Below are positions 10,323-50,400 of a stretch of 64,000 nucleotides of DNA, in pieces. The notes below the pieces were generated by a model. That model was not told where the DNA came from and searched no databases. It saw only the letters and a program-made list of their open reading frames with translations. The number at the start of each line of letters is the position of its first letter. Position 1 is the first letter of the stretch. Made by a program: the position numbers and the translations under genes. This DNA is from a virus (taxonomy: Duplodnaviria; Caudoviricetes): IMG/VR virus record IMGVR_UViG_3300028591_006041, positions 17,708 through 81,707 of that record. The stretch is one strand, 5' to 3'.

Positions 10323-10323
10323 G

Positions 10324-10488
10324 TTATTCTTCCCAAACTGAATGTTTATTGACTAAAATTTCTGAACCATCTTCAATAAGTTCATCTTCATTAGTATAAA
10401 TTGGAATACTCATAGGATTTTCCATTATATCTTCTGAATCAATTTCCTGAATTCGAATTGTAGGAATTATATAATGTTTCTTATTCAT
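10324..10488 (-). CDS. 54-aa acidic peptide with YxxP leader-like motif (not in ORF track)
   Basis: Manual translation MNKKHYIIPTIRIQEIDSEDIMENPMSIPIYTNEDELIEDGSEILVNKHSVWEE*; fills the gap between operon genes exactly. Confidence 0.6.
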   Translation of the reverse strand: MNKKHYIIPTIRIQEIDSEDIMENPMSIPIYTNEDELIEDGSEILVNKHSVWEE

Positions 10489-10489
10489 A

Positions 10490-10720
10490 TCAATCATTTT
10501 CTCTTTTAAAATATGTTTCCCAAATCCTATCTGCTATTGCTACTGTCTCATCTTCTTCAGCATACATAAGAGCTTCCGTCAATTCAGGATGCATAGCATA
10601 ATCATATTCACCCCAATTAGGATATTCTCCAGGATATTCATTATCCCATCTAATCAAATACTTAATGGCAAGCATCAAATCATCTACGCTAAATTTTGTT
10701 TTTGGCTTTTCCATGTTCAT
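10490..10720 (-). CDS. Hypothetical protein
   Basis: 76-aa ORF in operon. Confidence 0.55.
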   Translation of the reverse strand: MNMEKPKTKFSVDDLMLAIKYLIRWDNEYPGEYPNWGEYDYAMHPELTEALMYAEEDETVAIADRIWETYFKREND

Positions 10721-11029
10721 TTCTTATTAATGTTAAACAATATTTCTGGATGAAATTCGGTGACAATATCTTTATCATCAACTTTAAATGTACGCTTTGT
10801 ATACTTACGTTTTTTCTTTGGAGTTTCTTTTCCAAATGATGATATTATATCATTAAGCGAATCAAAAAAATCATCAAATGTTTTCATTTTCTACAGTTTT
10901 TAAAATGTCAATAAAAAATCTAAGACTACGTTTTGTTGGCAAATGAGACGAATTGATTGCATCAATCAAAAGCTCAGCAGTTTCTTTATTAATTTCAACA
11001 GTCATAAATTAGAATTTTAATACATTTAT

Positions 11030-11057
11030 AATATAGTTACAAATGGTAAAAATTCAA
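11030..11057 (-). promoter_or_regulatory. Class A promoter TTGAAT-N16-TATATT
   Basis: Same hexamers and spacing at 16238, 22340, 31832 and 44393. Confidence 0.7.
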
Positions 11058-11060
11058 TTT

Positions 11061-11073
11061 TATTTTTAATAAA
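11061..11073 (+). promoter_or_regulatory. Class B (putative late) promoter motif TATTTTTAATAAA
   Basis: Exact copies also at 2813, 16279, 24284, 38409, 44435 and 62817 (minus), each just upstream of a gene or candidate RNA. Confidence 0.6.
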
Positions 11074-11092
11074 TTAAATCTTATTTATAAAG

Positions 11093-13294
11093 ATGTCTAA
11101 ATATTTGCAACAATTTGAAACATTTGATACTTTTTTAAAAAATATTCCAATAAATTTGAATATTAGCTATTTAGAAGATAGTGATACTTTTATTTTTGGT
11201 TTAATAGGATCAGATAATTTAATAATATATGAGAATGAAACAAAACTAAATAATATGACAAGCCCATATGGTGATAATGGTATTTGGTCTTCAACTTTAA
11301 AAGGTAATGATTATTTAGATAGCTATTCTATAGGAATATTGTCCCTTGAAGATAATTATAATATTCAATTTAATGCAAATATATATAAATTATATTTTAA
11401 TGATCCTTATATATTGACTTACAACAGATCTATTTTGGGTGATTATCAACATAATATTGGAGAAATAGAACTTGGTAATAAAGTAACTATACAAAATTTA
11501 TCAAATAATTATATATTACACAAAAGTTCACCCTATGATACAGATATATATAATTGTATAATTGATGAAAATAATCCTGATATAGATTCAAGAGATAATT
11601 GTAATGCTATTATATACACATCAACTAATACTTTAAGTACAGGATTTATTAATACAACTATTCCAAATAGTGTTGTTTCAATAGGAAATAATGCATTTGC
11701 TTATACAAATAAACTTTATATCATAACTATACCAAGTTCAGTTACATCTATAGGTACTCAATCATTTAATTATTGTAAAGATTTACATTATGTTATAATT
11801 GAGTCTACTACACCACCTACAGTAACAAATACTTCATTTGGAAATTGTGCTAATTATATGAAAATATTTGTACCTGATAATAATGTAGATACTTATAAAA
11901 ATGATTCAAATTGGTCAACTTATAGTAGTAGAATTTATTCAATAAATGATATAGGAAAATTTATTTATTATTATGGTAGTAGTAAACTTCCTGAAACAAC
12001 ATCAAGTAAGAATTCAGGAATACATACGGGTGCATTTCCAACAATAACAAATCATTCTTATGATAGTAATAGTCAATGTGGATGTATAGAATTTGAATCA
12101 TCAGTTGAAACTATAGGTGGTTATGGATTTTGGTCATGTAGTTCAATATGCACAAAAATAATATTACCACCAACTATATCTAATGTTAGTACAAACTATT
12201 CATTAGGTGCTAATAATAGTTCATTAGAATTTATTTTTACTAATCGATATTATAATTATAATTTAATAAATCAGTTAAATGATGGAAATACGAGATATCA
12301 ATCTTCAATAAGAATTATTCCTGACATCCTTAATGTATCATATAATTCTAATAATGCAGCAATTCCTGAAATAGTTTTAATTCCACATAGAGTAAAAGCT
12401 ATAACATCATTTAAAATTGCAAATAGAGAAGATTTATTCAAAATTAAATATATAAAAATACCAAAAGGAATAAAATATATACGCAGTTATTTTGGAACAT
12501 GGTCTACACCTTATAATGGTGGTGGTGGATCTAATCAAATAACAGAATATATATGGTGTTCAGCCATTAAAAATAAAAATGGTATATATTATTTAGATGA
12601 TTATGTAATAGCAGTATATAATTCTAATGTTAGTCAAATTATTATTTGGGAAGGAATACATACTATAGCAAATGAATTTATTCTTAAATGCGCTGAAAAT
12701 AGTTATTTAGAAATATCTTCTACAGTAAAAAATATATGTGATAATATATTTGGTTTTTATCAAATATTAATTACTGGAAGTGGAGCTTATATTAAATATA
12801 TATATACAATAAATAATATATCAAATATTGTGGTAAATTCAAATAATACCACATATGATTCACGAAATAATTGTAATGCTATAATAGAAACAGCCACAAA
12901 TAAACTTATAGCGGGATGTAGAAATTCCACTATTCCTAATACTATTACTTCTATTGGTAATAATGCTTTCAGTCATTGTACTGGTATTACAAATATTATA
13001 ATACCAAATAGTGTTACTTCAATTGGTGAATATGCTTTCTATATGTGTAGTGGTCTTGCAAGTGTGACAATTGGTAATAGTGTCACTACCATTGGTCAAA
13101 ATGCTTTCAATGGTTGTAGCGGTCTTACAAGTGTGACAATTGAAGCTACAATACCACCAACACTTATGAGTAATGCATTTGGTAATAATGCAAGTGGTCG
13201 TAAGATATATGTACCGGCTGCAAATGTTGATACTTATAAAACAACAAATGGATGGTCATCTTATGCATCATATATAGAAGCAATACCAACATAA
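11093..13294 (+). CDS. BspA-type LRR protein, mosaic
   Basis: Two DSR(D/N)NCNAII..T.PN+LRR blocks, each ending RKIYVP-type; N-terminus MSKYLQQFET resembles that of 4493. Confidence 0.85.
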   Translation: MSKYLQQFETFDTFLKNIPINLNISYLEDSDTFIFGLIGSDNLIIYENETKLNNMTSPYGDNGIWSSTLKGNDYLDSYSIGILSLEDNYNIQFNANIYKLYFNDPYILTYNRSILGDYQHNIGEIELGNKVTIQNLSNNYILHKSSPYDTDIYNCIIDENNPDIDSRDNCNAIIYTSTNTLSTGFINTTIPNSVVSIGNNAFAYTNKLYIITIPSSVTSIGTQSFNYCKDLHYVIIESTTPPTVTNTSFGNCANYMKIFVPDNNVDTYKNDSNWSTYSSRIYSINDIGKFIYYYGSSKLPETTSSKNSGIHTGAFPTITNHSYDSNSQCGCIEFESSVETIGGYGFWSCSSICTKIILPPTISNVSTNYSLGANNSSLEFIFTNRYYNYNLINQLNDGNTRYQSSIRIIPDILNVSYNSNNAAIPEIVLIPHRVKAITSFKIANREDLFKIKYIKIPKGIKYIRSYFGTWSTPYNGGGGSNQITEYIWCSAIKNKNGIYYLDDYVIAVYNSNVSQIIIWEGIHTIANEFILKCAENSYLEISSTVKNICDNIFGFYQILITGSGAYIKYIYTINNISNIVVNSNNTTYDSRNNCNAIIETATNKLIAGCRNSTIPNTITSIGNNAFSHCTGITNIIIPNSVTSIGEYAFYMCSGLASVTIGNSVTTIGQNAFNGCSGLTSVTIEATIPPTLMSNAFGNNASGRKIYVPAANVDTYKTTNGWSSYASYIEAIPT

Positions 13295-13325
13295 AAAAGG
13301 AATAACCTCAATAGTTATTCCTTTT
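13295..13325. terminator. Bidirectional terminator
   Basis: aaaaggaataac-ctcaata-gttattcctttt. Confidence 0.7.
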
Positions 13326-13478
13326 AAAAGTATATTTATTCCAATCTGATGCATATCTAAAGGGATATTGACAATAAGAACATTGAAATATTTCTCCATC
13401 TTCATCGATGGCCTTAGATATATTTATCTCAACATTTTTATAACATTTTGGACATTTGACTATATCCATTGATTTCAT
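13308..13478 (-). CDS. Small zinc-ribbon protein (56 aa, not in ORF track)
   Basis: Manual translation MKSMDIVKCPKCYK...FQCSYCQYPFRY...NNY*. Confidence 0.55.
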   Translation of the reverse strand: MKSMDIVKCPKCYKNVEINISKAIDEDGEIFQCSYCQYPFRYASDWNKYTFKRNNY

Positions 13479-13493
13479 TATAATATAATTTTG

Positions 13494-13724
13494 TTAGAAT
13501 TCACTCTTCATCCTGACACTAATTCTTCCTTTCGTCAAATCATAAGGACTCATCTCAACCTTTACTCTATCTCCAAGAATAAGTTGAATATTATGAATTC
13601 TCATCTTACCGGAAATAGTGCATCTTACAACAAATCCATTATCTAATTCGACATTAAAGAAAGAACTTGGAAGTACCTCAACAATAGTTCCTTCTTGTAT
13701 TAAACAATTTTGTTTACTCATCAA
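13494..13724 (-). CDS. infA: Translation initiation factor IF-1
   Basis: EGTIVEVLP..FNVELDNG..CTISGKMR...I.LGDRVKVEMSPYDLTKGRI. Confidence 0.95.
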   Translation of the reverse strand: MMSKQNCLIQEGTIVEVLPSSFFNVELDNGFVVRCTISGKMRIHNIQLILGDRVKVEMSPYDLTKGRISVRMKSEF

Positions 13725-13907
13725 TAATTATTTATTAAATTTTTTCAAGAATAAATATTGCACCATTACTTTCAGGTTTCCAGTCTTTTATTGACCAACC
13801 TTCACCTAAAAACTTATTTAATGCTGGGCATTCATAATAGCAATAATTATTATCTATATCTATACATTCCCAACAAAAATTTTCATTTTTTATATTAATA
13901 ACCTTAA

Positions 13908-14078
13908 TCATGTGTCTGTCTTTTTTAGTTCATTAATCAATGCATCTGCATACTCTACTGAAAATTTAGCTATTTCATCAATGTTAATATAATTAATATT
14001 AGAACATCCAAGTATTCTTGAAGTCATAACTTCTTTAGCAACTTCAAATCTTCTTTGCTCCCAATTAATTTCACCCAT
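13908..14078 (-). CDS. Small conserved phage protein (56 aa, not in ORF track)
   Basis: MGEINWEQRRFEVAKE...YADALINELKK; recalled WEQRRYEIAK family of Bacteroidota phages. Confidence 0.6.
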   Translation of the reverse strand: MGEINWEQRRFEVAKEVMTSRILGCSNINYINIDEIAKFSVEYADALINELKKTDT

Positions 14079-14123
14079 ATAATTATAATATTGAAAATTA
14101 ATAATCTTTAATTAAAAATGTAA

Positions 14124-14155
14124 AGAAAGAGCCGTATTAGGCTACAGCTCTTTCT
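14124..14155 (-). terminator. Terminator after the TROVE gene
   Basis: agaaagagc...gctctttct inverted repeat. Confidence 0.55.
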
Positions 14156-15834
14156 GGAGTATAGTTAGGATCGATAACAATCTTTCTAACCTTATCAATA
14201 TGTGCTTGTGGATTGAACTCCAACTTTGCTACATCCTCAAACATTGAGTAGCCATAACCGAAGTAGTAGCCAATTTTATCTGTTTGTGGAAGAATTGTAG
14301 TTCCGTAAGAAGCAAGGTCTACACAGTATACATAAGGACTACATACATCGTGTACATACTTCTTATATGCATCTTTTACCCAATCTCCATAGTAGTAGCT
14401 ACGAGAGTTGCACTCATTATCTGAAAGAACAAATATTCTATCGTATTTTCTCTTCCACATTCTAATCATTTCAAATGCAGAACCAATAGATGTTCCTCCC
14501 CACATAGCTGCATTCTCAATTTGCTTAGCAATAGCAAATACATTGTCTGATTGACGATACTTAAACTCCTTAGCAGATGATGAGAACAAAACAACATCTC
14601 CACCGCATGCCTTAGCAATTGTAGCACCAATAAGTGCAGCTTCTGACATAGCAGTTCTGCTAATTATTTTTCTACCGTTTTTGTTATTTCCCATTGTACA
14701 TGGTGAACTCATAGAACCAGAAGTATCAATCATTACACAAGTCTTTCCTCCAAGCAATACTTTCAAATTAGGAAGAGCTGTCTCATATCCATTACGAAGA
14801 GCTTGTTTGATTTGATCTCCATAAGTGCAATATGGAAATTCAGTTTCAATAGTCATATAAGCCAAATCAAGTTGATAAGGCATAATAAGACCATTACGAA
14901 TCTTATCTCCATCTTGTACTAACTTACAAAGAGCATTGATTACTGACTCACGAGGATCCTTAAGCATGTTACGGATATTTCTCAAAGCTGCAAGAATTCC
15001 AAGCTTACCCTCCATAAGAAGAGACTCCCAGTTGTCATTCTTAGCCTCTGCCAATACCTTCTCAGCTTCATCCTTAGAAATTTTACCCTCCTTAACTGCC
15101 TTGGCAACCTCTTGTCCTGCATCTGATTGAGCAGCTTCCCAAGTGTCTGCAGTAACAGTAATACCTTGCATAAGGGCATCCAAAGTCTTCATCTTTTTGC
15201 CATTAACAGTAATAACTGCATTTGACAATGCTGAATTTGGGTGAACAAGATTAGCCAAGTCAATAGCTGCATCCTTGTACTTAGCAAGTTGATAAGTATC
15301 AAGAGTGATAAGAGCCTTTGCAAAACCCTTCTTCATGGCATTTGACAATGTTCCACCATTCAATGCGCTATAAGCATCCTTGATAGCCTCCATGTCATCA
15401 ACACGATAAATACATCCACCTTGCTTATTCTTCTTATCCCAAAGACCATAGAATGCCTTAGCCCATGGTTGACCAGCAACGAATGGAGCTGCCAATGTAG
15501 CTGCAAGTTGGTTAATAGAACGCATACCTTCTCCACAACAACGTGAATAAACAATTGCTTGAGCAAGAAAATATGGATCCTTAAGACCAATCTTCTCAAT
15601 CAAATCACGAAGCTCAACAAGAATCTCATCCTCACTTCTGTAATATTGATCTTGAATCTTGAGAGTATTAAGCATAGACAAAAGTCTAAGCTCATCAGCT
15701 ACAGAATAAGCTTTGAAACCTTGACGGTTTACAGTGTCCTCATTAGGTATTGAAGCAACCTCTTGGACTCTCTCTTTTGACGCCATTACACCTAGTGCAT
15801 TCTTCAATTGGGCGTTTCTGTCCTTCATCTTCAT
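14137..15834 (-). CDS. Ro60/Rsr-like TROVE-domain RNA-binding protein with C-terminal vWA domain
   Basis: NRQGFKAY, DPYFLAQAIVYSR..GMRS, LVHP, TWE, ALRNIRNM; MIDAS IDTSGSM, GGTSI, LSDNE. Confidence 0.9.
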   Translation of the reverse strand: MKMKDRNAQLKNALGVMASKERVQEVASIPNEDTVNRQGFKAYSVADELRLLSMLNTLKIQDQYYRSEDEILVELRDLIEKIGLKDPYFLAQAIVYSRCCGEGMRSINQLAATLAAPFVAGQPWAKAFYGLWDKKNKQGGCIYRVDDMEAIKDAYSALNGGTLSNAMKKGFAKALITLDTYQLAKYKDAAIDLANLVHPNSALSNAVITVNGKKMKTLDALMQGITVTADTWEAAQSDAGQEVAKAVKEGKISKDEAEKVLAEAKNDNWESLLMEGKLGILAALRNIRNMLKDPRESVINALCKLVQDGDKIRNGLIMPYQLDLAYMTIETEFPYCTYGDQIKQALRNGYETALPNLKVLLGGKTCVMIDTSGSMSSPCTMGNNKNGRKIISRTAMSEAALIGATIAKACGGDVVLFSSSAKEFKYRQSDNVFAIAKQIENAAMWGGTSIGSAFEMIRMWKRKYDRIFVLSDNECNSRSYYYGDWVKDAYKKYVHDVCSPYVYCVDLASYGTTILPQTDKIGYYFGYGYSMFEDVAKLEFNPQAHIDKVRKIVIDPNYTPERAVA

Positions 15835-15878
15835 AATTTTGACTATTCTAAATGTTAATATAAATTTAAAAAGAAATT

Positions 15879-16205
15879 TTAATGTTTATAATGTTTGTTT
15901 TTCAAAACTCTATCATACTTTTGATGATAATATTCTCCAGAACGATAAGGATCTTTATCCATTTTCTTTATGGTGTCTTTATTGACAAGAACATATCCAT
16001 CAGTTGGCTCTCTCCAGGTATCTTTCTTAACCTTTTCAGGATCTGTAATTATGTTCTCTACTTCTTCTGGATCATAATTTGACATTAATGAACGAAGATT
16101 GTTTTTTCCAGCTCGTTTAGTATTTCTACGACGAGTTTTGTAATAACTTCGATTGTCTCCTACCGCGATAGGTTGACGAACATTTTTACGATAAGTTTTA
16201 CTCAT
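15879..16205 (-). CDS. Basic hypothetical protein
   Basis: 108-aa Arg/Lys-rich ORF, first gene after the class A promoter, upstream of TROVE. Confidence 0.6.
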   Translation of the reverse strand: MSKTYRKNVRQPIAVGDNRSYYKTRRRNTKRAGKNNLRSLMSNYDPEEVENIITDPEKVKKDTWREPTDGYVLVNKDTIKKMDKDPYRSGEYYHQKYDRVLKNKHYKH

Positions 16206-16237
16206 TTAAATTAAGTTTAATAATTAATGGTATATTT

Positions 16238-16265
16238 AATATAGTTACATTAATGAAAAATTCAA
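16238..16265 (-). promoter_or_regulatory. Class A promoter driving the TROVE/IF-1 operon
   Basis: TTGAAT-N16-TATATT. Confidence 0.7.
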
Positions 16266-16309
16266 TAAAATAAAAATATATTTTTAATAAAATTAAGAAT
16301 ATTTTTTGA

Positions 16310-18841
16310 ATGGATATTAAAGATAAAGTAAATTATATGATGATTCATAATGATAACTACGATTATCATTATGAAGACTATGATGGTCATCTTAATAATG
16401 GATTTACTAATATAATATTTAATGAATCTACAAATGAATTAATATGCTTATCTCATGTTTATAAAATAATTTATGATAAAGATAGTGGTATAAATATTGA
16501 ATATAATTTTTCTAATTCAGGTAATAATGTTACAGTACTTGATTATGCCACATCAATGTTTAAACTAAATGAAGATTATGCTATAGTTTATATAGAAGTA
16601 ACTACTCCTGAAGAAACATATGAAGAATCTGCATCAGTAATATACAATATAAATGATCAAATAAAAGATAATCAAGAACAACCAAATGAATGTACATTAT
16701 CTTATATATTAGATGAATTAGTTCTTGACGGAGAATTAGATTATTTTGATTACAGAACAATAAAAATAAGAATAAAGACTTCTAAAATAATTCATTTTGA
16801 AGATTCATTAGTCAAACAAATATGTGTAGAAAATTGGGGTAATAATTATACTCGTGCAGAAATAACTGAATATGAGGCAGCTCAAGTAAGCTATTTTGAT
16901 CAAAGATTTCAAAATACTGCAATAACAAAATTCAATGAGCTTAAGTATTTTACAGGAATAATGACATTCCAATATGAGAATTCTTCTGGTAACAATAATG
17001 GTACTGCGACTCATAATAGTTATTCAACTGGACAATTTTATAAGTGTACTAAACTAGAAGAAGTAACTTTACCAGAAATGCAAGTAAGTACATGTATATG
17101 TGGAATGTTTTTGGGTTGTAGCAAGTTGAAATTTGCAGACCTTTCTCCTCTTACTAAGAATTTTAATTTGCATGGTGCCACTTCTTCTTGTTTTAAAGGT
17201 TGTACTTCATTAGAAGAAGTGATTATGCCATCTGGTAAATATAATATTAATAATTCAACAACAAACATGTATCAAATGTTTCTAACTTGTACTTCATTAA
17301 AAAGAATAATATTCAATGGAAATGTTGATTTTGGAAAGTTAAGATATAGAACCTATGGATCAGATAATATATGTAGCAAATGTACAGAAATAATTTTTAA
17401 TGGAACAGTTTCAGGTATCGGCATTTCAAATAGCGATTATCAATGTTATTATTTTTATAATTATCCTAATCTTAACAGAATATCGATGCTTAAAATCATT
17501 TCAGGAATGAATGTAAATGTAACTAACAAAATGGTATACTTTTATGATTTTGGTATAAAAACTCGACTTTACAGCGAAGATTGTCAAGAAATAATAAATA
17601 GAGGTTATACAAATTTATGGAAAATACTATATATAAATGGAATAAAATATGAGCATTGGTTAGTCAATTATAATCCGGTGCCATCAATAAGAATAGGAAC
17701 AAACATAACTTTATCTAATCTTCAAAACTTTACATTCAACAATGATACAAGAGTGTTAAGCTTTCCAATAAAATGTGGAGCATTATCTATGGATTTGTCA
17801 TGTCAAACTGGACAAAATTTTACAATAGGATTGTCAGGTGTAGACTTATATGATATTGCAAGAAATGTTGGAATTATATTCTATACTGAACATGCATGTA
17901 CAATGGATAGTTTGATAATAGATGTTGTTGAAAATGAAGCTGGAAGTATATCTTATGTAGGTTCAAATAGTACGGTACTTTCTGTACAATTAATCAACTC
18001 ATTTGGTGCAACAATGGCAAATATGGGTATGTCTGATTACGGAAGTGCTTATTCACGATTAATATATGCTCATAGTTCATCTAAATCAACAAACATCCAA
18101 ACACATATTGAATTAAATGACTTTTATTGTCCTAAAGGATCATTGATACTTATACAAGATAGAACAGCTGGAGCCACCTTAAGCTATTCAATATCTACTA
18201 CCCAAAATTCTTCTTTAGAAGACATATTCATTAATGGTGAATATTGGTATGTCGATTACGGTATTTGTATAGAAAAGATAATAGATACAGACATAGTACC
18301 TACATCTGACATGAGAATGAAAGCAGAATTCATATTATATAGAAATCCTTATAACAATGATCCTGATCCCAACCAAAAACATATGATTATGGGAAGTGTA
18401 CAAGGAGGTAGTACTGATTCAGGATTATTTCAAATATTTGCAAGTAGTGATAAAGAATTTACTATGGCATGGGCTCATAATTCACAAACAAAAGAAACAT
18501 ACACAAACAGAGTTGCATCAGGAGCAGTATTAGATGGTGTTAGTCATGATATTACTATTGATAAAAATGGATTTACTATATATTGTCCCAATTATAATGG
18601 AACTGAATCTAAAACATTCTCAGGAACCATAATAGCAAATAATGCTGGCTATCATTTGTTATTATATCCTTGCATATGGTTACATAGATTAAGAATATGG
18701 GACAATATAGATTCTACACCTACGCTTATACATGAAATAGTTGGAGTAAGAAACAATCTTAATTCTAAAGAAGGATTATATGATTTGATTACTGGAAAAT
18801 TCTGGACAACAAAATATGACAACTATGAAGTAAAAGTTTGA
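16310..18841 (+). CDS. LRR (BspA-like) protein with C-terminal beta-sandwich; probable virion surface protein
   Basis: FNELKYFTG, FYKCTKLEEVTLP, FKGCTSLEEV; C-terminal EIVGVRN..EGLYDLITGKFW. Confidence 0.65.
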   Translation: MDIKDKVNYMMIHNDNYDYHYEDYDGHLNNGFTNIIFNESTNELICLSHVYKIIYDKDSGINIEYNFSNSGNNVTVLDYATSMFKLNEDYAIVYIEVTTPEETYEESASVIYNINDQIKDNQEQPNECTLSYILDELVLDGELDYFDYRTIKIRIKTSKIIHFEDSLVKQICVENWGNNYTRAEITEYEAAQVSYFDQRFQNTAITKFNELKYFTGIMTFQYENSSGNNNGTATHNSYSTGQFYKCTKLEEVTLPEMQVSTCICGMFLGCSKLKFADLSPLTKNFNLHGATSSCFKGCTSLEEVIMPSGKYNINNSTTNMYQMFLTCTSLKRIIFNGNVDFGKLRYRTYGSDNICSKCTEIIFNGTVSGIGISNSDYQCYYFYNYPNLNRISMLKIISGMNVNVTNKMVYFYDFGIKTRLYSEDCQEIINRGYTNLWKILYINGIKYEHWLVNYNPVPSIRIGTNITLSNLQNFTFNNDTRVLSFPIKCGALSMDLSCQTGQNFTIGLSGVDLYDIARNVGIIFYTEHACTMDSLIIDVVENEAGSISYVGSNSTVLSVQLINSFGATMANMGMSDYGSAYSRLIYAHSSSKSTNIQTHIELNDFYCPKGSLILIQDRTAGATLSYSISTTQNSSLEDIFINGEYWYVDYGICIEKIIDTDIVPTSDMRMKAEFILYRNPYNNDPDPNQKHMIMGSVQGGSTDSGLFQIFASSDKEFTMAWAHNSQTKETYTNRVASGAVLDGVSHDITIDKNGFTIYCPNYNGTESKTFSGTIIANNAGYHLLLYPCIWLHRLRIWDNIDSTPTLIHEIVGVRNNLNSKEGLYDLITGKFWTTKYDNYEVKV

Positions 18842-28118: not shown

Positions 28119-31100
28119 CTAAAATGGCACCTCGTTGCCAAATAAATCTAACTTATTGTCATTATTGTTTTCTTCATTCTCATCATTCTCATTTTCTATG
28201 CTAAATATGTCATCTTTAAGTTTGTTTGTATTCTTTTGCTTAATCATAAATCTGTTATTTGAATTATCCTTTTCACTGTAATCATAATAATCAAATTCCT
28301 TATGTACAATATTTGGCAATTCACTAATGATATCTTCTAATTTGACCTTTGATGTATGCTCAAAATCTTTGAGTTCTTCTTCTACGTCATCTTTATTATT
28401 ATCTTTTATATTATTTTCATCTATTAATTGTTCTAAGAAGAATGTCTTTGTATTTATATCACCATAAATATTGATTACATCCAATTTTGATTCCCATAAT
28501 AACTCAAATGGCTTAATGTTTATTTTTCCATTTTTTGGCCTACTTTCAACAATTATTATTTTCCAATAATCTTGAATTATGTCAAATATCTTAGAAGCAT
28601 ATTCAATATCATCAATAACAACATCTTTAATAGAATTGCAATATTTACATGACCATTCTGCCAAAAACATATCAATATCTCCTCGAGTTGTTTCAGGATT
28701 TTCTTGTGCCCAATTCTTACAATCATATAAGAATCTCATTATTGGAAAATCCAAACGTTTTTTCTTTCTGTTATTTTCAATATTGACAAACATTCTTATT
28801 CTGTTAAGTTTTGAAAAATTCAAACGATTAGATTTCAAATCAATACAATAATCATAGATTTCTCGAATTCTGTCACAATCATATGTTTTGTAAAGACTTA
28901 ATATTATTGGTACATGTTTTTCAAGAATCTCAATATCATCAACATATAAGTCATTTTCTTCTCTTATTCTCTTATTGTCTTCATCAGTATCTTTATATAT
29001 TGAATAATTTCCTTTCAATAATTCTCTATATAAGTCAATATTTCCATCAGATACATGACTAAGAAGTTTTCTAACTTTTATAGTATCTTCATTGAATTTA
29101 ACATTTCGACAAGCCTTCATGAATTCTTCTAATTCTTCAACTTTATCTTCAGGAGTTTCTTTATCACTTTTCGATATTTTGACATCATATCCATAATATT
29201 TGATTCCATTAATCATAACATTCAATTGTTTAGAATATTCAGAATATCTTTCTTCAAATACCTTCAATTTATAAGTAGTCTCATCAATATAATATTTGCA
29301 ATCATTCTCATCATATTTAAGATATTTGTTTGTACTAAGTAATGAGCTTATAATTGGATTATATTTTGATTCTTCATAGTTTCTTTCTAACATATCATTA
29401 CAAGTCTTAACTAAATCTCTTGCTGTCATCAAATCATTTTGACTAAAACTTAAGTCAAGTGGTTTAATATAATCATAATTCAATGGTAATCCATTTTTAT
29501 CGAATAATGGTAAATATATCTTAATATGTAAATTATTGTTTCTAATCCTATTTGCGAATTGTTCAATATCTTGAGGAATCCAAGTCTCATTGAAATATAT
29601 TACAAAATCATAAGGATCACAAATATCTACTCCTACACTTAAATAAGTTGAACAAAATATTATATCATTATTTCCAATTGTCTTATTTATGTTTATATTA
29701 TCCATTGACTCTTCACCATATTGTGATTTCTTATAATAGAATTTTTTCAGTTCTCTTGGAAATTCCATTTCATTCAATATTTTTTGAATCATTCCGGTTA
29801 TTTGCTCATAATATAATATTCCGCGATTTGTTGGAAATAATATTTTTTTACCTTCTTTTATATTTTGTGCCATATCTACACACATGTCTCTAATTTGTTC
29901 TGTAGATGATGGTACTAAATTGATTATGCATTCTTTAACTCTTAAGTCTTCCTTTTTCACTTTAATATGTTTGATATTTGGAAAGAATAGCATTTCTCCT
30001 GTTGGTGTTCCACTCATCATAATTATCTTAGCTTTACAATTTGCTAAACGTTGAATACATGGTCCCATAACTTCTCGATAAGATGATGTAAACAATAAAT
30101 GAGACTCATCTATAACTATATATTTGAAATTTGCGGCATCCAACTCATAAACATTCAAATGAGAAAACTTATCAATAGTCATAGACATATTTTGATTTCC
30201 CATAATGTCACTTAATGTAGGTTTTTTATTTCCATAAAAATACAACCAATCTTTTGTTACACTTGATGCTTCAACTTTAGCTTTAATAGTTGATGTGAAT
30301 GGTAATATAAGTAATGTTTTGTCTTTTAGAGACTTAATCATTTCTGTCTTACCATATCCTGCACCTGCCTCTAATAGAGTTATATGATCCAAATTTTTCA
30401 CAATTTCATCTTTTATGTCACTAAGATATTGATCTTTAGTAATTGTCAATATTGTTTGATTTGTTTTATCATTCAATATTTTTATTGGATCAATTTTATT
30501 GTCTAAATTTTTTATCTCATTTTCTATTTGAGTTAAGTTGACATTATCAATATCTTTCTTAATCTTTATATTGAATCCATGTTGGTTATTAAGCTCATTG
30601 ATAGCCCAAGTTGTCATTGGTTTATGATGTATTGCTGCAGTCTTTATATCTCCTTTCAATTCCCTCATAGATACATCTTTACATATACTGCATATTATCT
30701 TAAATGCTTTTTGTTCACCAAATAATGATGTAAGAGTATTAGCCAATTGCCATCTATGGAAGTGTTTGTAGTGTTTGCTACCTTTTGACTTACTTAAATC
30801 ATAATTTATGTCTTTATCAATATTTTCTAATTCAATATTTGTACTATCATTGAAGTCATCATTACTAAACCAATCCAATTTACTAAATATGTTTTTCAAA
30901 TCAGGATGAGATATCCAATTTATTGACTCAACACCATTGTTCAAAGCTGACTCAAAGTTGATATCTAATCTTAAATCATTGAAATTAGTTGAAAGATAAG
31001 CATTGTCTGAAGATATGAATATACCCTGTTGAGGTTTACCTACAGCCATATCCATATAATTGTATATAGATTCTTTGTTATATCCATATTTGTCACAATA

Positions 31101-31742
31101 TTTCAATAACATAATATATACATAAGAATACTTATGCCTAAAATTGCATAGATATTCAATTCTTCTGTTCTCATATTTCACAGTTATTGGAGTTATCTTT
31201 GTCCAAACATGAAGAGATTTCTTAGATGCTGACCTACATATTCCTAAGAACCAATGAAATTTTGACAAATCATTAAACAAATCATCTTTCAACTCATTAG
31301 ATATGTTCTCATCTTTTATATCCAAGTCAATAATTTGAAGACCATTCCACATTTGATAAGCTATATCTCCAATTGGACGATTATTTGATGAAGTTGGAAA
31401 TACCATATTACGATGAATCTTATCTATTTTTGAATAATCCTCATCATACATTAAATCATAAATTTCTTTCCAATTGAATATTCTACCAACTTTATCATAT
31501 ATAGAATTTACAACCAAACATTCTATCAATTGTAGTTGATCATTATAGAATTCTTGTTGTTCTTCTTTAGAACATTTATCAAATAATATGTTTGAATATT
31601 TGTTTAAGTTTGAATTATAATCTATATTTATGTTTTCTTTAGAAATACAACTAAATGATTCTAAAATTTCAGATAATGACTTATTCTTAGTATTATCATA
31701 TAAGCTATTTATTTTCTTTATACCGTTATTCAAAACTGTCAT
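28119..31742 (-). CDS. Primase(VirE-N/AEP-like)-SF2 helicase fusion
   Basis: WNGLQIIDLDIK..SASKKSLHVW; AGAGYGKT, VIDESH, MSGTP, STYLSVGVDI. Confidence 0.75.
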   Translation of the reverse strand: MTVLNNGIKKINSLYDNTKNKSLSEILESFSCISKENINIDYNSNLNKYSNILFDKCSKEEQQEFYNDQLQLIECLVVNSIYDKVGRIFNWKEIYDLMYDEDYSKIDKIHRNMVFPTSSNNRPIGDIAYQMWNGLQIIDLDIKDENISNELKDDLFNDLSKFHWFLGICRSASKKSLHVWTKITPITVKYENRRIEYLCNFRHKYSYVYIMLLKYCDKYGYNKESIYNYMDMAVGKPQQGIFISSDNAYLSTNFNDLRLDINFESALNNGVESINWISHPDLKNIFSKLDWFSNDDFNDSTNIELENIDKDINYDLSKSKGSKHYKHFHRWQLANTLTSLFGEQKAFKIICSICKDVSMRELKGDIKTAAIHHKPMTTWAINELNNQHGFNIKIKKDIDNVNLTQIENEIKNLDNKIDPIKILNDKTNQTILTITKDQYLSDIKDEIVKNLDHITLLEAGAGYGKTEMIKSLKDKTLLILPFTSTIKAKVEASSVTKDWLYFYGNKKPTLSDIMGNQNMSMTIDKFSHLNVYELDAANFKYIVIDESHLLFTSSYREVMGPCIQRLANCKAKIIMMSGTPTGEMLFFPNIKHIKVKKEDLRVKECIINLVPSSTEQIRDMCVDMAQNIKEGKKILFPTNRGILYYEQITGMIQKILNEMEFPRELKKFYYKKSQYGEESMDNININKTIGNNDIIFCSTYLSVGVDICDPYDFVIYFNETWIPQDIEQFANRIRNNNLHIKIYLPLFDKNGLPLNYDYIKPLDLSFSQNDLMTARDLVKTCNDMLERNYEESKYNPIISSLLSTNKYLKYDENDCKYYIDETTYKLKVFEERYSEYSKQLNVMINGIKYYGYDVKISKSDKETPEDKVEELEEFMKACRNVKFNEDTIKVRKLLSHVSDGNIDLYRELLKGNYSIYKDTDEDNKRIREENDLYVDDIEILEKHVPIILSLYKTYDCDRIREIYDYCIDLKSNRLNFSKLNRIRMFVNIENNRKKKRLDFPIMRFLYDCKNWAQENPETTRGDIDMFLAEWSCKYCNSIKDVVIDDIEYASKIFDIIQDYWKIIIVESRPKNGKINIKPFELLWESKLDVINIYGDINTKTFFLEQLIDENNIKDNNKDDVEEELKDFEHTSKVKLEDIISELPNIVHKEFDYYDYSEKDNSNNRFMIKQKNTNKLKDDIFSIENENDENEENNNDNKLDLFGNEVPF

Positions 31743-31831
31743 TAAAAATATAATTAATTAAATATAGTTAACTATTTGACAAAGATTCCTATTAAAAATA
31801 TTTTTTATTTCGATTATTTTTTATGATTTTA

Positions 31832-31859
31832 TTGAATTTTTTCATTTAATAACTATATT
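31832..31859 (+). promoter_or_regulatory. Class A promoter pointing into the tandem repeat array
   Basis: TTGAAT (31832-37), N16, TATATT (31854-59). Confidence 0.7.
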
Positions 31860-31879
31860 ATATATGTAATTAATTTATA

Positions 31880-32143
31880 TATGTTAAACTTTTAATGGTC
31901 TCTAAAATATGTTAATCCGTAACAAATCAGATCCCAGGCATTAAGGATTATTAATTAAATTTTTAGATGAATATAGCTTAATGTTTAACCTTTTAAAACC
32001 GCGGAGATTATGGTAATTCGCAACAAATCAGATCCCAAATACTAAGAATTATTATTTAAATTTTTAGATGAATATAGCTTAATGTTTAACCTTTTAAAAC
32101 CGCGGAGATTATGGTAATTCGCAACAAATCAGATCCCAATTAA
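31880..32143 (+). repeat. 101-bp tandem repeat (2 near-identical units plus a degenerate first unit) carrying micro-ORFs M(L/V)IRNKSDP
   Basis: aacaaatcagatccc at 31921, 32022 and 32123; ORFs 31909-31944, 32010-32045, 32111-32143. Confidence 0.9.
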
Positions 32144-32185
32144 ACATAATAATTTTTTATAATTCAATATTAATATTTATTTTAC

Positions 32186-32210
32186 AAGGAGCTCACTAAG
32201 GGCTCCTTTT
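32186..32210 (+). terminator. Intrinsic terminator closing the repeat unit
   Basis: aaggagc-tcactaagg-gctcctttt. Confidence 0.75.
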
Positions 32211-32242
32211 TATTTTTATATAAAATATAGTTATTTATATAA

Positions 32243-33121
32243 ATGCCTTGCAATACAATTAATCAAAAAATAAATAACATTAATATTGATGAAACTCAAA
32301 ACAATTCTTCTCAATCAATGGAAGAATTTTTGAAACTAAAACAACAACAAGAAGATCAAGTTGACTATCAATTCATACAAAGAATAATTCAAGAATTGAC
32401 ACAATCATGTGCATTACCTCTTCCAATTCCTGCAGCTTCAATTCCACCATTGATTATTCAGGCTGCTCAATGGTTTTGGGCTAATGATGATAGAATGATT
32501 AATGAAAGATATTTTGTAGTTCGTAATAAAGATTTTTGTAGGAAATGCAGTAATACAATTATCAAATTACCACCTCAAATTCTTAGTGTATTTGGAGTAT
32601 ATAAAGTTCATCCTAATTATTATTATGGAGCAATGGGAGATTTTTCACTTGAACGTATGGTAATTAATAATACTGTTTTAGCTTCTGGCGCAGGTGGATC
32701 ATTATCAGATACTTATGGAATGGGAACAGGATATAACCTTACCGATATGATGGCAGGGCTCTATGAAATACAAACTTTTAAAGCTATGTTTGATGTTCCT
32801 TTGACATTCAATTACAATGAATTTTCAAATGAGTTAGTAATACTTGGACAGTTAGGAGTTTCTGATGTAGTATTACAAACATTTACAAGATGTAAAATTC
32901 AAGATATGTATAAAGATTATTATTTCTTTAGACTTTGTGTATGTTTTGGATTAAGAAGTATGGCTACTATTATGGGTGCTTTTGAGTTTAGATTACCCGG
33001 TGGTACTACAATAAACTATTCTACATTTAGAGAAATGGCTGAAACTGAAATAGATAAGATAGAAGAATGGGTAGTTAAAAATCATTCTACTGACTATTTC
33101 TTCAATTCGAATACAATTTAA
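32243..33121 (+). CDS. Neck/head-completion protein (T4 gp13-like)
   Basis: C-terminal FRLPGGTTINY...AETEIDKIEE matches the recalled gp13 LPGGV motif; class B-like motif at 32211. Confidence 0.7.
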   Translation: MPCNTINQKINNINIDETQNNSSQSMEEFLKLKQQQEDQVDYQFIQRIIQELTQSCALPLPIPAASIPPLIIQAAQWFWANDDRMINERYFVVRNKDFCRKCSNTIIKLPPQILSVFGVYKVHPNYYYGAMGDFSLERMVINNTVLASGAGGSLSDTYGMGTGYNLTDMMAGLYEIQTFKAMFDVPLTFNYNEFSNELVILGQLGVSDVVLQTFTRCKIQDMYKDYYFFRLCVCFGLRSMATIMGAFEFRLPGGTTINYSTFREMAETEIDKIEEWVVKNHSTDYFFNSNTI

Positions 33122-33206
33122 AATTGAAGAAGAATTTCATAATTTCTTCAATTCTAATACAATTTAAGAAACAATTTTATTATTTCTTCAATTCAAATAC
33201 AATTTA
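33096..33206 (+). repeat. Three 25-bp direct repeats atttcttcaattcNaatacaattta
   Basis: Copies at 33096, 33142 and 33182; the first is the 3' end of the neck gene. Confidence 0.9.
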
Positions 33207-33212
33207 AAGAAA

Positions 33213-44367: not shown

Positions 44368-44392
44368 TTTTATAATTTTTGGTTACATATAT

Positions 44393-44420
44393 AATATAGT
44401 TATTAGTTTTAAAAGTTCAA
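44393..44420 (-). promoter_or_regulatory. Class A promoter
   Basis: TTGAAC-N16-TATATT. Confidence 0.65.
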
Positions 44421-44473: not shown

Positions 44474-47400
44474 ATGGCAAAGAAAACAATTAGTGGAGCA
44501 TTAGGTAATCTTGGAAAAACAATGGCAAATATGTTTGGACCTAAAACTCCATCTGGACCAGAAGACAATACGGAAGAGATAAAAGAATTCTTAGAATCAA
44601 TAAAAATGAATATGTCTATGAGTTATGCTAGTTTCTTTTTAGGAAATTCTGCGAAAGGACTTAAAGACACATCTTTTTTAGGTGCAACAAAATCAAATAA
44701 AAATTCTATTCTCGGTGAAAATAAGTCAATATATAGTTTATTAGAAGATATTAAAAAACAATTAGATAAGAATACTAAAGAATCTCCAATTGTTTCAATG
44801 TCAGAAAATATAAAGAAACTTCAAACATCATTCAAAAAATATCCTGATGATATAGAAGAAATATTAGAATCTTCTTTGAAGACTCTAAATAAAGAAGATA
44901 GTGAAAATAAAGAAGAAGGTGAATTAAGTAATGAAGTAAGACTAATCATATCAGGATTAGATGGTAAAGGAATAAATGGATTAATTGAATTAGCTAAAAT
45001 GGATTCTGATAAAGTATCTCAAGGATTGAAGAATTTATTAGAAGTCATAAAACCATTTAATGAATTGAAGTTAGATGAAAAAATCATACAAAACCATGTT
45101 TCTTTAATAGAAACAATAATGAATAAAGTAAATACTGTAAAAGTTCCAGATAGTGAAAAACAAGTTGATGTCATAGAATCTATACAAGCAATTTTAGGAA
45201 TATTAGGTTCTTTGGAAACAATTGGTAAAATGGAAGACAATTCAGATAAAGCCAAAACAATTATTGTAAACTATCTTAAAGCTTTACAGGAATCTTATGC
45301 TGAAGTAGAAAAATCATTCAACCAAATTATAGCTATATCTACTTTGGTAGATCAATCTAAAAGTGCTTCAGCTAAAATAAAAGAAGGATTAGATGCTTGT
45401 AATCAAACTGCAATAGAAACAGCAAATAATGAATCAACATTGAAAGCTAGTAATAGGTCAATGGGTGAATTGACAGGATTCATGATAGCTGCCGCAGCTG
45501 TAATGATGATTGGTGCATTATTCATGGAATTGAGTAATGGAAAAATGTTCATTAATGCACTTAAATTTGGTGCTGCATTAATGGCATTTGAAGCTTTAGT
45601 GTTAGCTCCTATATTGATTTTCTCTAAAATGAAAGGAGAAGTCGCTAAAGGCTTAGAAGACTTTTCAGATTTTGTTATAGTATGTGCTGGAGTAATGATG
45701 GTTGGTGCATTATTTATGCACCTAAGTGGTGGAAAAATGTTTATGAATGCACTTAAGTTTGGATTAGTTCTTGGTTTATTTGAAGCTTTAGTGTTAGCTC
45801 CTATATTGATTTTCTCCAGAATGAAAGGAGAAGTTGTACAAGGTCTTAAAGATTTTTCAGGATTCATTATCGTTTGTACGGCAGTTATGCTTATAGGAGC
45901 ATTATTTATGGGTTTGGCTGGAGGTAAATTAGTCATAAATGCGTTAGCTTTTGGATTGACTCTTGGATTATTTGAAGCATTGGTATTAGCTCCTATATTA
46001 GCATTCAACAAAATGGAAGGAGAAGTTGTACAAGGACTTAAAGATTTTTCAGGATTTTTAATAACTTGCACAATAGTTATGCTTATAGGAGCATTATTTA
46101 TTGAACTTGGTGGTGGAAAGTTTGTATTGAATGCTTTGGCATTTGGATTTGTTTTAGGAATGTTTGAAGCTATGGTAATTGCACCATTTTTATTATTCAA
46201 TTTAATAGATAGACAAGTATTTCAAGGATTAAAAGCATTTAGCGGAACATTGATAACATGTACAGTAGTTCTATTAATTGGTGCTTTATTTATGCAATTA
46301 GGTGGTGGAAAATTTGTAAAAGCAGCAATGGAGTTTACAGTATTGTTAATGGCTTTTGAAGCTGCAGTAATAGCACCAATATTGCTATTTAATTTGGCTA
46401 AACCTGTCATATTTAGTGGTTTGAAAGATTTTTCAACATTCTTAATTACTGTTACTGCATGTTTGTTGATTGGTGCATTATTTATGACACTGAAAAATGG
46501 AACAATACCTAAATATGCTATGGAATTTACTGGAGTTTTTGCTTCATTTATTGCGGCTATTGGTGTAGCAATCATACCTCTTATGAAATGGCTTAAACCT
46601 GCAGTAATGGAAAAGATGCATGAGTTCAATTTATTCTTAGCTATATCAAGTGCATGTTTAGTAATTGGTTCATTATACATATATAAATTTGGAACAATGT
46701 CTGCATTAAAATATGTAGGTGTATTTGAATTATTTATTTTAGGTATGGGTAAAGTTGCTAAGACTATTGTAGAATTATTTGATAAAAAGACATTAGATAG
46801 TCTTAAACCATTCTCAATATTCTTAGGAACTATGCACGCTATACTTATAACAGGTGGATTATTTACTAAAAAATATGGTGCTACAATAGGAGCAAAATAT
46901 GCAACAGTATTTGATTTATTTGTGTGGGGTATGGCTAAAGTATCTAAAAACATAACAGATAATTTTGATAAAACAACGTTGGATAGTTTAATTCCATTTT
47001 CAATATTCTTAGGAACTATGCATACTGTATTAGTTACTGGAGCAATGTTCATGGATAAATACGGAAATACAGCAGTATCAAAATATGGAATAGCTATAAC
47101 CACATTTATTTATGGTATATTACCTGCTATGGCAGCAGTAATTGCAATAACAACTATCGCTAAAATATCTCAAATGAATGCTATTCTTGCTGGAGGTGGT
47201 TCACTTGGATTTACAATTCCTGCTGAAGGTGGTGGAATGACAAGTTTCTTCATATTTGTAGGACTTATGCACGCAGTATTATTAACTGGTTCAATGTTTG
47301 TTCATCAATTTGGAGTAGAACCTATTGCTGAATATGGTATATGTATAGCTGGATTTATTTATACTATGGTTGGTGCTTTAGCTCTTTTTAATGCCATAGA

Positions 47401-50400
47401 TATTAAAGAAAAGAAATTAACAGATTTTATCGTTTTTGTTGGAGCATTACATGCAATAATATTGACTGGAGCATTATTCATAAATCAATTTGGAACAGAA
47501 GATGTAGTAACTTACGGTATTATTTTAACAGTATTTGTTGGTGCAATGTCTGGTATATTTATTTTACTGTCTAAAACTATTAGCAATAAAGTTGAGAAAG
47601 ATGTATTGATTTTTGCGGCAATGGTAGGAATATTCCATGCAATAGTATTGTCTGCAGTATTAGCAGTAAGAGACACATTTGATATTGTGGCAGTTGGAGA
47701 ATACTTAGCAGTTTTAGGATTATTTACAACAGGTATGGTATTCTTATTTAAAGCTTTACAAAAACATATGCAAGATATAACTAAAGGAGCATTAGCAATG
47801 TTAGCTATATCAGGTTCAATGCTTGTATTTAGTGGAGTAATATTCTTAATAACTAAGATATTTGAAAAGAAAAATCCTGATGAAGTTCTTGAATTAGTTG
47901 GTGGTTTAGCATTGATTTCTGGAGCTTTAGGATTGTTTTATGGTATAATAGGTTCTTATGCCGGTCCCGTCGCAATGGGTTCTTTAGTAATGTTGGCAGT
48001 TAGTGCATCATTTGGAATTTATTCACTTATTATCAGTATGATTGTTGATATGTTTAGAAATACAACAATGGAAGAAATTCTTGGATGTACAACTAATCTT
48101 ATATTATCAGCAGGAGAATTATCATTATTCTTTGGTATAGTTGGTATTCCTCCATTTGCATTACTTGTATCTTTAGGTTCAGCAGCAATTGCAGCAATGG
48201 CTTTAGCATTACAACAATATGTAAAAGGATTAGGAGATACAATCAATTTATTAGCGCCTTATGGTGATCCTAAAAATTATGATGATTCAACTGTTCATTA
48301 TGCTATAGAATATTTAAGTAAAGCTAATGAAGAATTGACAGAACTATTTGAAAGTTTTGGATTTTTTGCGATTAAAGTAAAGACTGGAGCAAAAGCAATA
48401 ACTTCAATATCAACTGGAATACAACATATAAATGAAGCCTTTGAATCATTGACAAATGGATATGCATCATGGGGTAATAGTATTGTTGAAGCTATAGTTA
48501 CTACTCATGAAATGATTAGTGATCAATTAGTTCCAATGTATAATGATATATGTAATAATAGCCCACAAATATTAGTTACTTCTTTAGCAACTGTAATGAT
48601 GAGAGGTATAGCTAAAGATATAGATAGTATTGTTGAGTATATTGTACAATCTGTTGATAAAATTAGTAAAACTGGAGACATAACAGATAATATTCAATTA
48701 GTAATAGACAATATATCTAAATATTTTTCAATACCTGATCAAGTATCATTAGGATTTTGGGGAGCAATAGGATTAAAATTAAAACTTATTGCATTGAAAG
48801 AATTGTCTCATGATATAGCACAAATAATTGGTGAAGTTGGAGATGCAGTAGCACATATAGCATCATTAGAAATACCTTGGAAATATGACGAAAAAGGTAG
48901 AGTAGTAAAATACAGACAATTAAGAGAATCAGACTTTGATTTAGCAGGAGAAAATGTAGGAAAGATATTGATGACTATAGCCGATGCTTTAAATAAAGTC
49001 TGGGATGGTGGTGATGGAAAACAAGGTCTTAAAGAAATGTATGGAGTTGATGCTCAAATTGGAGAATTTTTTGGTATAGACTCACCTCTTACTTCAGTAA
49101 TGAATTTTGGTATGGATGTTTCTAAAGTATTAAGTGGTGTTGGTGAGTCTGTTGGTATGATAGCTAAAATGCAAATTCCAACCAAATGGGATGAGCATGG
49201 AAAACCAATCGCATTCAGACAACTTAAAGAAAAAGACTTTACTATGGCTGGTGAAGGTGTAGGTTTTATCCTCACTCATATGGCAACAGTATTAGGAGAT
49301 ATATATAAAAATGGTTGGGTTGATGAAAGTGGAAATATTGGAAATACTTCAGGAAAATACAATATATTTGATAGAACTTCTGGAGGATTTCTTAGAATGG
49401 ATGAAGACCCAAGTCCTATTGAAAAGGTTTTAGGAGCATCATTTCAAATAAGTGAGATATTAGCAAATATTGGTGAAGGTGTAGGTAAAATTGCTAAATT
49501 ACAAATTCCTACAGCTTGGGACACTAAAACAGGAAAAGTGACAAATTATAGAACCTTGAAAGATCAAGATTTTAGAGACATGGGAATTGGTGTTTCAACA
49601 ATATTGACATCAATATTCAATGCATTAATAAATGATGTATATAAAGGAAATGAAGAATTATTTAAAGAAATAAGTGGAGGACTATTTTCTAGTGACAAAC
49701 CATCTCCAATGATGACAGTATTAGAAGCTTCTGCTAAAGTTAGTGAAATCATATCTAATACAGCAAAAGGAATATCTCAAATGGCAAAAATGCAAATTCC
49801 TGATAAATGGGATGAAAAGGGAAAACCAATACATTACAAAGAACTTACCAAAGAAGATTTTACTAAAGCAGGTGAATCTATTGGAAGTATAGTAAAATGT
49901 GTAGTAGATAAGTTAATAACATTTGCAGATGATCCAGTATTTAAAGATGATACATTCAAACATGTTATGGATTCAGTAATGCCAATATCTGAACTTATTT
50001 CAAATATGGCAGAAGGAGTATTGAAATTAGCTTCAGGACAAATACCATCTAAATGGAATGATCAAGGAAAACCAATAGAATTCAAAAAAATAGAACCTGC
50101 TGATTATGCAGCTGCAGGAGTAACTGTTGGTGTCATAACTACTTCAATAGCACAAACATTACTTGATTTAGTAAAAAATGATCAATATAAAGATTATTTC
50201 TTTGATGAAAATGGTAAACCTTCAGAAAAAATGCAAGTTGTAGTTGAATCATTTAGTGGAATTTCCGGATTAGTTACTGATATGGCTGATGCAGTAGTAA
50301 AACTTGGACAAGGATTAGTTGCGGATCAATGGAAAGATGGTAAACCTACACATTATAAACCTATTGATTTCATTAAGATAATTCCATCAATGCAACAAAT

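Follow-up and report, generated by a model that had tools for sequence, protein, structure and literature searches.

A strain-variable cassette of 101-bp repeats between an early-type promoter and a terminator in a T4-like rumen phage, with high depth in RNA libraries

In an AT-rich, T4-like rumen phage, a set of 101-bp direct repeats lies between a helicase-like gene and a neck-protein gene and is enclosed by a promoter and a terminator of its own. This arrangement raises the question whether the locus works through its RNA, through very short peptides encoded in each repeat or as a DNA element, or whether it is a by-product of genome shuffling. The window, that is, the whole stretch of DNA analysed here (64,000 nt), comprises bases 17708-81707 of an IMG/VR virus record of 81.7 kb and has a GC content of 27%. 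The completeness of the record, estimated as 29% by CheckV, indicates that the phage is probably large. Parts of the stretch were found in runs of 19 studies of sheep and cattle gut.

The two genes that flank the locus are as follows.

28119..31742 (-): DEAD/ResIII-type helicase-like gene, 1207 aa, left neighbour of the cassette (Pfam PF00270, E=3.4e-7)
32243..33121 (+): T4 gp13-type neck protein, 292 aa, right neighbour of the cassette (PF26809 Phage_T4_gp13, precomputed; phrog_211)

From the start of the helicase gene to the start of the gp13 gene there are 500 nt with no ORF of at least 50 aa. Look-up of the exact 1207-aa helicase-like protein returned no record. By its family matches the right neighbour is a neck protein and not a toxin, and it has no significant PADLOC hit. 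Shine-Dalgarno sequences are absent from the genes of this phage, with GGAG present in 1/60 upstream regions (60 ORFs of at least 120 aa from the whole record), and TATAAATA-like motifs precede many of the same ORFs, as at T4 late promoters. Taken together with gp13, these features suggest a T4-like phage of a host that initiates translation independently of Shine-Dalgarno sequences, possibly a member of the Bacteroidota.

The cassette itself and the short repeats that bracket it resolve into the following elements.

31757..31775 (no strand assigned): left 19-nt direct repeat, a TAAATATAG-type promoter-like motif (repeat finder; 84% identity to 32220-32238)
31826..31860 (+): class A promoter, sigma70-like and early-type, with -35 TTGAAT at 31832-37, N16 and -10 TATATT at 31854-59 (extended consensus)
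~31880-31907 (+): diverged partial 'unit 0' (ATGTTAAACTTTTAA...), which aligns with the ATGTTTAACCTTTTAA block of the full units (alignment and sequence reading)
31908..32008 (+): unit a, with core 1 (31909-31936), then a variable tail and 54 nt that unit b shares without a difference (repeat finder, TRF)
32009..32109 (+): unit b, with core 2 (32010-32037) (repeat finder, TRF)
32110..32185 (+): core 3 (32111-32138) and, after it, a very AT-rich tail found only in this unit (repeat finder, sequence)
32186..32218 (+): intrinsic terminator with a 9-bp stem (5 G-C pairs), a 5-nt loop and a T-run, stem and T-run at 32186-32208 (terminator search; the hairpin also appears in the fold)
32220..32238 (no strand assigned): right 19-nt direct repeat, a TATAAAATA late-promoter-like motif (repeat finder)

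The promoter and the terminator, which the original prediction had placed at 31832-59 and 32186-210, are both corroborated, the former as a member of a recurrent family and the latter as the sole terminator-like site nearby. The class A family has the extended consensus ATTTTATTGAATTTTT-N11-TAACTATATTA and about eight members in the window, including those at 7230, 11057, 16265, 22367 and 44420. All of the listed members (8/8) point at an adjacent gene, usually 25-38 nt before its ATG. The cassette copy is the only one on the plus strand and points into the repeats; 23 nt of it are identical to the promoter at 44383-44405, and transcription is predicted to start near 31866. At the other end, the terminator at 32186-32208 is the only such site in 31000-33000 (0.3 expected) and is conserved in six contigs of related strains (L034 and L036-L040). 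The right 19-nt repeat lies 19 nt before the gp13 start and is also an inverted copy of the class A -10 region. As a separate observation, a promoter-like site of the form TTGCAA-N18-TATATT at 32224-32253 (-), an inverted near-copy of the same -10 region, overlaps the start of gp13 and faces left, towards the cassette, so that an antisense transcript is possible.

The 101-bp repeats described in the earlier account of the locus were recovered by two programs: TRF reports a period of 101 with 2.3-2.7 copies, 93% matches and a score of 401 at 31908-32139/32176, and the repeat finder reports three copies, at 31908, 32009 and 32110. 'Unit 0', which precedes core 1, is an addition to that account. 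The units are 91-93% alike, and each of the three copies in 31908-32176 contains a 28-nt core that reads AUG(K)UAAUYCGYAACAAAUCAGAUCCCA as RNA and holds much of the G and C of the cassette. The cassette contains the 18-nt core pattern CGYAACAAATCAGATCCC three times, where shuffles predict 0.04, and the pattern has no further occurrence in the 81.7-kb record. A check of DNA motifs found that GATC is not avoided and that CCGCGG occurs only in the cassette. The differences between units a and b are unevenly placed, with 25/28 nt kept in the core, 3/13 in the 13 nt upstream of it and 7/12 in the tail; overall, there are 9 differences in 47 nt and none in the remaining 54 nt, a pattern that speaks against neutral decay of a simple kind. 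The strains differ too little for purifying selection on the core to be demonstrated. The window contains other repeats of a different kind. A second tandem repeat at 33096-33212 (period 40, 2.8 copies, 84% matches) takes in the final 26 nt of gp13 together with the gap that separates it from a convergent 1710-aa gene, and three copies of ~40 nt or more at 45615, 45807 and 45999 (-), at a spacing of 192 nt inside a 2848-aa ORF (44474-53020), indicate internal repeats in that giant protein.

Comparison with relatives points to an accessory element. Seven relatives (L006-L012; gp13 identity 74-85%) keep the helicase-gp13 pair with a spacer much shorter than 500 nt, and the core motif is absent from all seven even when 3 mismatches are allowed; the helicase-like gene stands beside gp13 in these cassette-free relatives and also in L036, a 284-kb ENA contig. 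The short intergenic region of the relatives carries one TATAAATATAG motif (seen in L006-L010), to which the left 19-nt repeat corresponds, and the window has the 19-nt version on both sides of the insert. Judged from these alignments, the cassette is an insertion of ~400 nt between the helicase and gp13 genes. Its unit number is polymorphic. Two cores are present in L036, in the Logan contig L040 and in a 13,966-nt bovine DNA contig from run X3; three are present in the window, and one ENA contig has the three-core length (502-nt spacer). The intergenic region measures 399 nt in L036 and L040 as against 500 nt in the window, and in the X3 contig the joint runs from 32038 to 32181, with one 101-nt unit absent in the two-core strains. 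In two further contigs with an identical gp13 protein, L033 and L035, a different module lies upstream of the gene.

L033:1-72, L035:1-119 and window 2880-2975 (by homology): alternative stem-loop module, in the window upstream of the gene at 3017

This homology suggests either a repeated module of stem-loop plus late promoter or a rearrangement. The insertion, the variation between two and three cores and the alternative module together mark the site as a hot spot for the gain, loss and exchange of cassettes. The cassette is found with promoter and terminator intact in strains from several studies and from two host animals.

These comparisons bear directly on the idea, offered originally as an alternative, that the repeats are iterons of a replication origin. 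On such a reading, the locus would be an auxiliary origin primed by the early transcript. T4 origins consist of a promoter and a downstream unwinding region, and they are redundant and poorly conserved between relatives. The locus sits in a very AT-rich junction where the helicase gene and its neighbour diverge, and it combines an early promoter, a short non-coding transcript and three direct repeats, all of which would suit such an origin. However, 7/7 of the more distant relatives retain the gene pair but lack the cassette, strains exist with one unit fewer, and a spacing of 101 bp is not iteron-like. Moreover, the RNA is made discrete by a strong terminator, unlike a primer that enters an unwinding region, and cumulative GC skew, a weak test in phages, follows gene orientation and has its minimum near 38 kb rather than at the cassette. 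With no positive support from these comparisons, we regard a DNA-level element as improbable.

Sequencing libraries from the rumen provide evidence for the RNA. We compared the depths of contigs from four runs, two of DNA (X3 and X2) and two of RNA (X6 and X12; two studies). In the DNA libraries the cassette and the flanking genes are level, at 17.4 and 17.4 in X3 and at 2.6-4.1 and 4.1 in X2. In the RNA libraries the cassette reaches 63 (31883-32034) and 93 (a 131-nt collapsed unit) in X6, with flanking genes at 0-5, and 475 (the 131-nt collapsed unit) in X12, with flanking genes at 0-7; such depths are a rough guide to RNA level only, in which strand, ends and exact level are unreadable and to which DNA carry-over may contribute. 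The X6 RNA contig starts at 31883, 17 nt past the predicted start, at a point through which the DNA contigs run. The terminal tail and the terminator (32140-32210) are uncovered in both RNA runs, and X12 yielded only the 131-nt collapsed unit, without the unit a side; processing, expansion of the array or loss in assembly could account for the missing parts. Transcription of the unit is well supported, and the original notion of a self-contained transcription unit is borne out by the class of its promoter, its terminator and a depth in RNA contigs far above that of the flanks where DNA libraries are flat. The strand and direction of the RNA, its ends and its action at the RNA level are inferred.

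Given transcription, the next issue is whether the product is translated. The repeats were originally described as encoding micro-peptides, and the reading frames in question are present exactly as described: MLIRNKSDPRH*, MVIRNKSDPKY* and MVIRNKSDPN* in the three units, with core differences TTA/GTA, ATC/ATT and CGT/CGC, and upstream MNIA* and MFNLLKPRRLW* with overlaps TAATG and ATGGTAA. Each unit could accordingly yield a peptide of 10-11 aa, M(L/V)IRNKSDP(x), acting as an inhibitor or signal whose dose is raised by amplification. The ATG, the open frame and a stop 1-2 codons past the core are kept in 8/8 units from 4 strains; the core differences amount to L/V and two synonymous changes, and the one additional core variant, ATC>ATT in L040, is synonymous as well. 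Fold predictions place the start codon in a loop or an unpaired stretch, and the lack of a ribosome-binding site is no objection because this phage initiates without Shine-Dalgarno sequences.

Several observations run the other way. The hint of protein-level selection that had been read from the three core differences is no better than chance: by our own arithmetic, P is ~0.26 for at least two of three changes falling at third positions, and 3-4 variable sites carry no statistical weight. When ranked by codon usage among 8-codon windows from the genes of the phage, the core is in the lowest 0.3-0.6%, with CGC making up 0.8% of Arg, CCC 2% of Pro and ATC 6% of Ile codons, so that the 'synonymous' change CGT>CGC leads to the rarest Arg codon. 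GGAG, which precedes the ATG in units b and c and is lacking in unit a, is not a normal ribosome site here because only 1/60 genes has one. At the C-terminus the peptides differ freely (RH, SH, KY, RY, N), only the MLNF* of unit 0 is opened by the first ATG at the usual class A distance (25-38 nt), and there is neither an export signal nor a modifying enzyme nearby. Nor is there conservation of the upstream micro-ORFs: in natural DNA and RNA contigs, 31983 G>A removes the ATG of MFNLLKPRRLW. On balance, the peptide reading is weakly disfavoured, and we consider it unlikely.

If the RNA is the product, it does not appear to act through a fold. Predicted minimum-free-energy folds, which do not model pseudoknots, give z-scores of -0.74 to +0.9 against shuffles for the whole unit and for single units, none of them significant, and the consensus fold of the three units has an energy of -0.58 kcal/mol and shows no consensus structure. 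The hairpin between gcgga (32001-05) and ttcgc (32017-21), which had been suggested to cover the ATG, exists in units b and c; unit a cannot form it, and its stability does not exceed that of shuffled sequences. Natural variants are compatible with it (32004 G>A, which turns G.U into A-U, and 32000 C>T, which turns C.A into U-A), these being one-sided changes. Rfam at gathering thresholds and ARAGORN both return 0 hits over the whole window, and Rfam in E-value mode on the cassette returns only noise. The lack of significant secondary structure makes the cassette RNA unlike the folded decoy RNAs known so far.

Searches for homologues and targets were likewise negative within their scope. Phage blastn detected no homologue of the cassette, exact matching of a core 21-mer, which is blind to diverged arrays, gave 0 matches in the genomes of 185,579 species, and a search for the two-core tandem pattern gave two matches, both to unrelated repeats. 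The core 18-mer has about ten unrelated chance matches in viral and metagenome contig collections and one match in an unrelated marine phage contig, L004 (also L005, L023 and L025; 68,981 nt, 30% GC). This contig shares 25/26 nt with core 1 (GTTAATCCGCAACAAATCAGATCCC), a 7-nt extension that the other ~ten matches lack. The match covers codons 7-15 of an 81-aa ORFan (6289-6534) between genes for a 5'-3' exonuclease and a primase, in sense orientation and in a frame that differs from that of the micro-ORF. The similarity of the flanks is marginal (12-21 of 500 shuffles), the ORFan protein has no relative in the rumen phage and belongs to no family, and the match is probably due to chance (~1e-3 by our own rough estimate). 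As for antisense targets, the 81.7-kb record contains no complement of at least 12 nt to the core, and one of 11 nt, TTTGTTGCGAA at 2918, is no more than chance would give. The module of the L033/L035 type contains (A)TTTGTTGCGAA, complementary to 11-12 nt of the core, which is the only antisense candidate found and stands at chance level.

With no partner or target found, and no homologue in the viral, metagenome and genome collections, it has to be considered that the RNA has no function. The cassette would then be a remnant made up of a promoter, a leader and the opening bases of a cargo gene since lost; slippage or unequal recombination would have duplicated it, and it would be transcribed merely from its location behind a strong early promoter. 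Confinement to one narrow lineage, the drift of copy number between 2 and 3, the lack of both structure and a good ORF, and the similarity of the units, which on this account would be young, all agree with such an origin, as does the fact that T4-type variable regions are full of shuffled pieces (PMC2839356). Against it stand the very uneven divergence of units a and b, the identity retained by the core between an upstream segment that has been replaced and a tail that varies, and the maintenance of an intact promoter and terminator across several studies and two host animals. We consider a functionless by-product a serious competitor, though not a likely one.

The explanation that we prefer, tentatively and with somewhat less than even confidence, is that the locus is a moron-like accessory early cassette whose abundant, mostly unstructured RNA acts through the repeated motif, with copy number setting the dose. 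This proposal builds on the observed anatomy, insertion, copy-number polymorphism and high depth in RNA libraries, and its mechanism is conjectural. In outline, the cassette would occupy a site of variable content between the helicase gene and gp13, where the early-type promoter would drive an RNA of ~340 nt (~240 nt in two-core strains) and the intrinsic terminator would insulate its transcription from the late gp13 gene. The cargo would be an AU-rich, largely unstructured RNA displaying two or three 28-nt motifs and acting in trans via the repeated single-stranded motif, either as a decoy or sponge that titrates an RNA-binding protein or nuclease, or by pairing with a target RNA; the dose would be adjusted by unequal recombination among the units. 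The ATG, frame and stop kept in 8 units leave room for translation. A bolder version, which we consider speculative and rather unlikely, is a new kind of counter-defence or host-takeover RNA: its 2-3 baits, cut after each ...GAUCCCA into ~101-nt units or otherwise presented as single-stranded 28-nt motifs, might soak up a host RNA-targeting nuclease or RNA-binding factor, with the gain and loss of units tuning the dose. The small share of probability beyond the working RNA, the by-product, the peptide array and the DNA element belongs to something else.

RNA-based accessory functions of phages are few and were mostly found by chance. The cassette adds a cleanly delimited, strain-variable and apparently highly expressed repeat RNA, with no homologue found and a dose that varies in nature. 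If this RNA has a partner, it would represent a new class of RNA decoy or regulator in phages of a poorly studied host group; if it is functionless, it would exemplify how promoter-terminator cassettes and unequal recombination create abundant junk transcripts.

With respect to known systems, several repeat or small RNAs of comparable layout can be set against the cassette. Y RNAs are ~100 nt long, with 5' and 3' ends that form a long stem carrying the Ro-binding helix. No terminal stem is found in any unit or in the whole RNA, and the cassette has no match to an Rfam Y-RNA model at E<=10. The window does contain a Ro60-like gene, 14137-15834 (-), which encodes 565 aa, matches TROVE and VWA weakly and lies where the GC content is locally higher (36%); around it, in 10300-16400, there is no Y-RNA-like gene at E<=1. 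The likeness to sponge RNAs of the CsrB/RsmZ type, namely an abundant small RNA with its own promoter and terminator and a repeated short motif, is a functional analogy only: the cassette lacks their GGA-in-loop architecture and its motif is 28 nt long. The presumed host group is not known to have a CsrA-type partner. RNA anti-CRISPRs and phage mini-CRISPR arrays likewise place short repeated phage RNA motifs behind a promoter of their own. However, unlike CRISPR arrays, in which repeats of about 24-48 nt alternate with unique spacers, the cassette has a period of 101 nt, would-be spacers that are 91% identical and no conserved repeat hairpin, and its best match to a CRISPR direct repeat is noise (CRISPR-DR3 RF01316, which reaches 21.6 bits where the gathering score is 41, E=2.8).

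The decoy RNA suggested in the original prediction invites comparison with the pseudo-ToxI of PhiTE (Blower et al., 2012; PMC3475682; PMC3401426), which is also a phage intergenic tandem repeat expressed as a non-coding RNA with a repeat number that expands and contracts between strains. Type III arrays contain 1.9-5.6 repeats between a promoter and a terminator (PMC3401426), an architecture that the cassette shares, its 2-3 units lying within this range. Nevertheless, the unit of 101 nt is far from the 31-62 nt of toxIN, 40-48 nt of cptIN and 39-57 nt of tenpIN (PMC3401426, Table 2). Type III antitoxin units are pseudoknots that the toxin cuts into unit-length RNAs (PMC3401426; PMC3475682); for the cassette RNA, folds that do not model pseudoknots predict no structure. 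In type III systems an endoribonuclease toxin gene follows the terminator, but there is no ToxN-, CptN- or TenpN-like gene near the cassette, and no cognate host array was found by exact matching. The variation in copy number fits a decoy, but the unit length and the lack of a toxin gene or of a host array in exact-match scans speak against a type III antitoxin or a mimic of the ToxI type. The bait described above would share with pseudo-ToxI the tuning of dose but have a unit that is unrelated, much longer and unstructured.

A close parallel in overall build is offered by the PeSL (promoter-early stem-loop) cassettes of T4-type phages, which combine a strong promoter of the sigma70 type with a terminator stem-loop and so protect the late genes that lie downstream (Arbiol et al., 2010, PMC2839356). 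As in PeSL and ORFan cassettes (PMC2839356; PMC4122927), the terminator shields a late virion gene downstream, and the cassette is present, absent or replaced between close relatives, with short promoter-like repeats flanking the insertion. The host phage is again T4-like, with a gp13 neck protein and TATAAATA-type late motifs. The defining combination of an early promoter and a terminator with non-essential cargo that varies between close relatives is found here. PeSL cargo has at both ends a composite motif that mediates recombination and holds the stem-loop within or beside the promoter; here, a 19-nt promoter-like repeat brackets the insert and a stem-loop is present only on the 3' side. 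The cassette differs in having this stem-loop behind its cargo and not within the promoter motif, in lacking the GGGG...CCCC stem of PeSLs and in carrying a tandem repeat without an ordinary ORF as its cargo. Thus, the locus offers a concrete PeSL-like cassette with RNA cargo in place of an ORFan protein.
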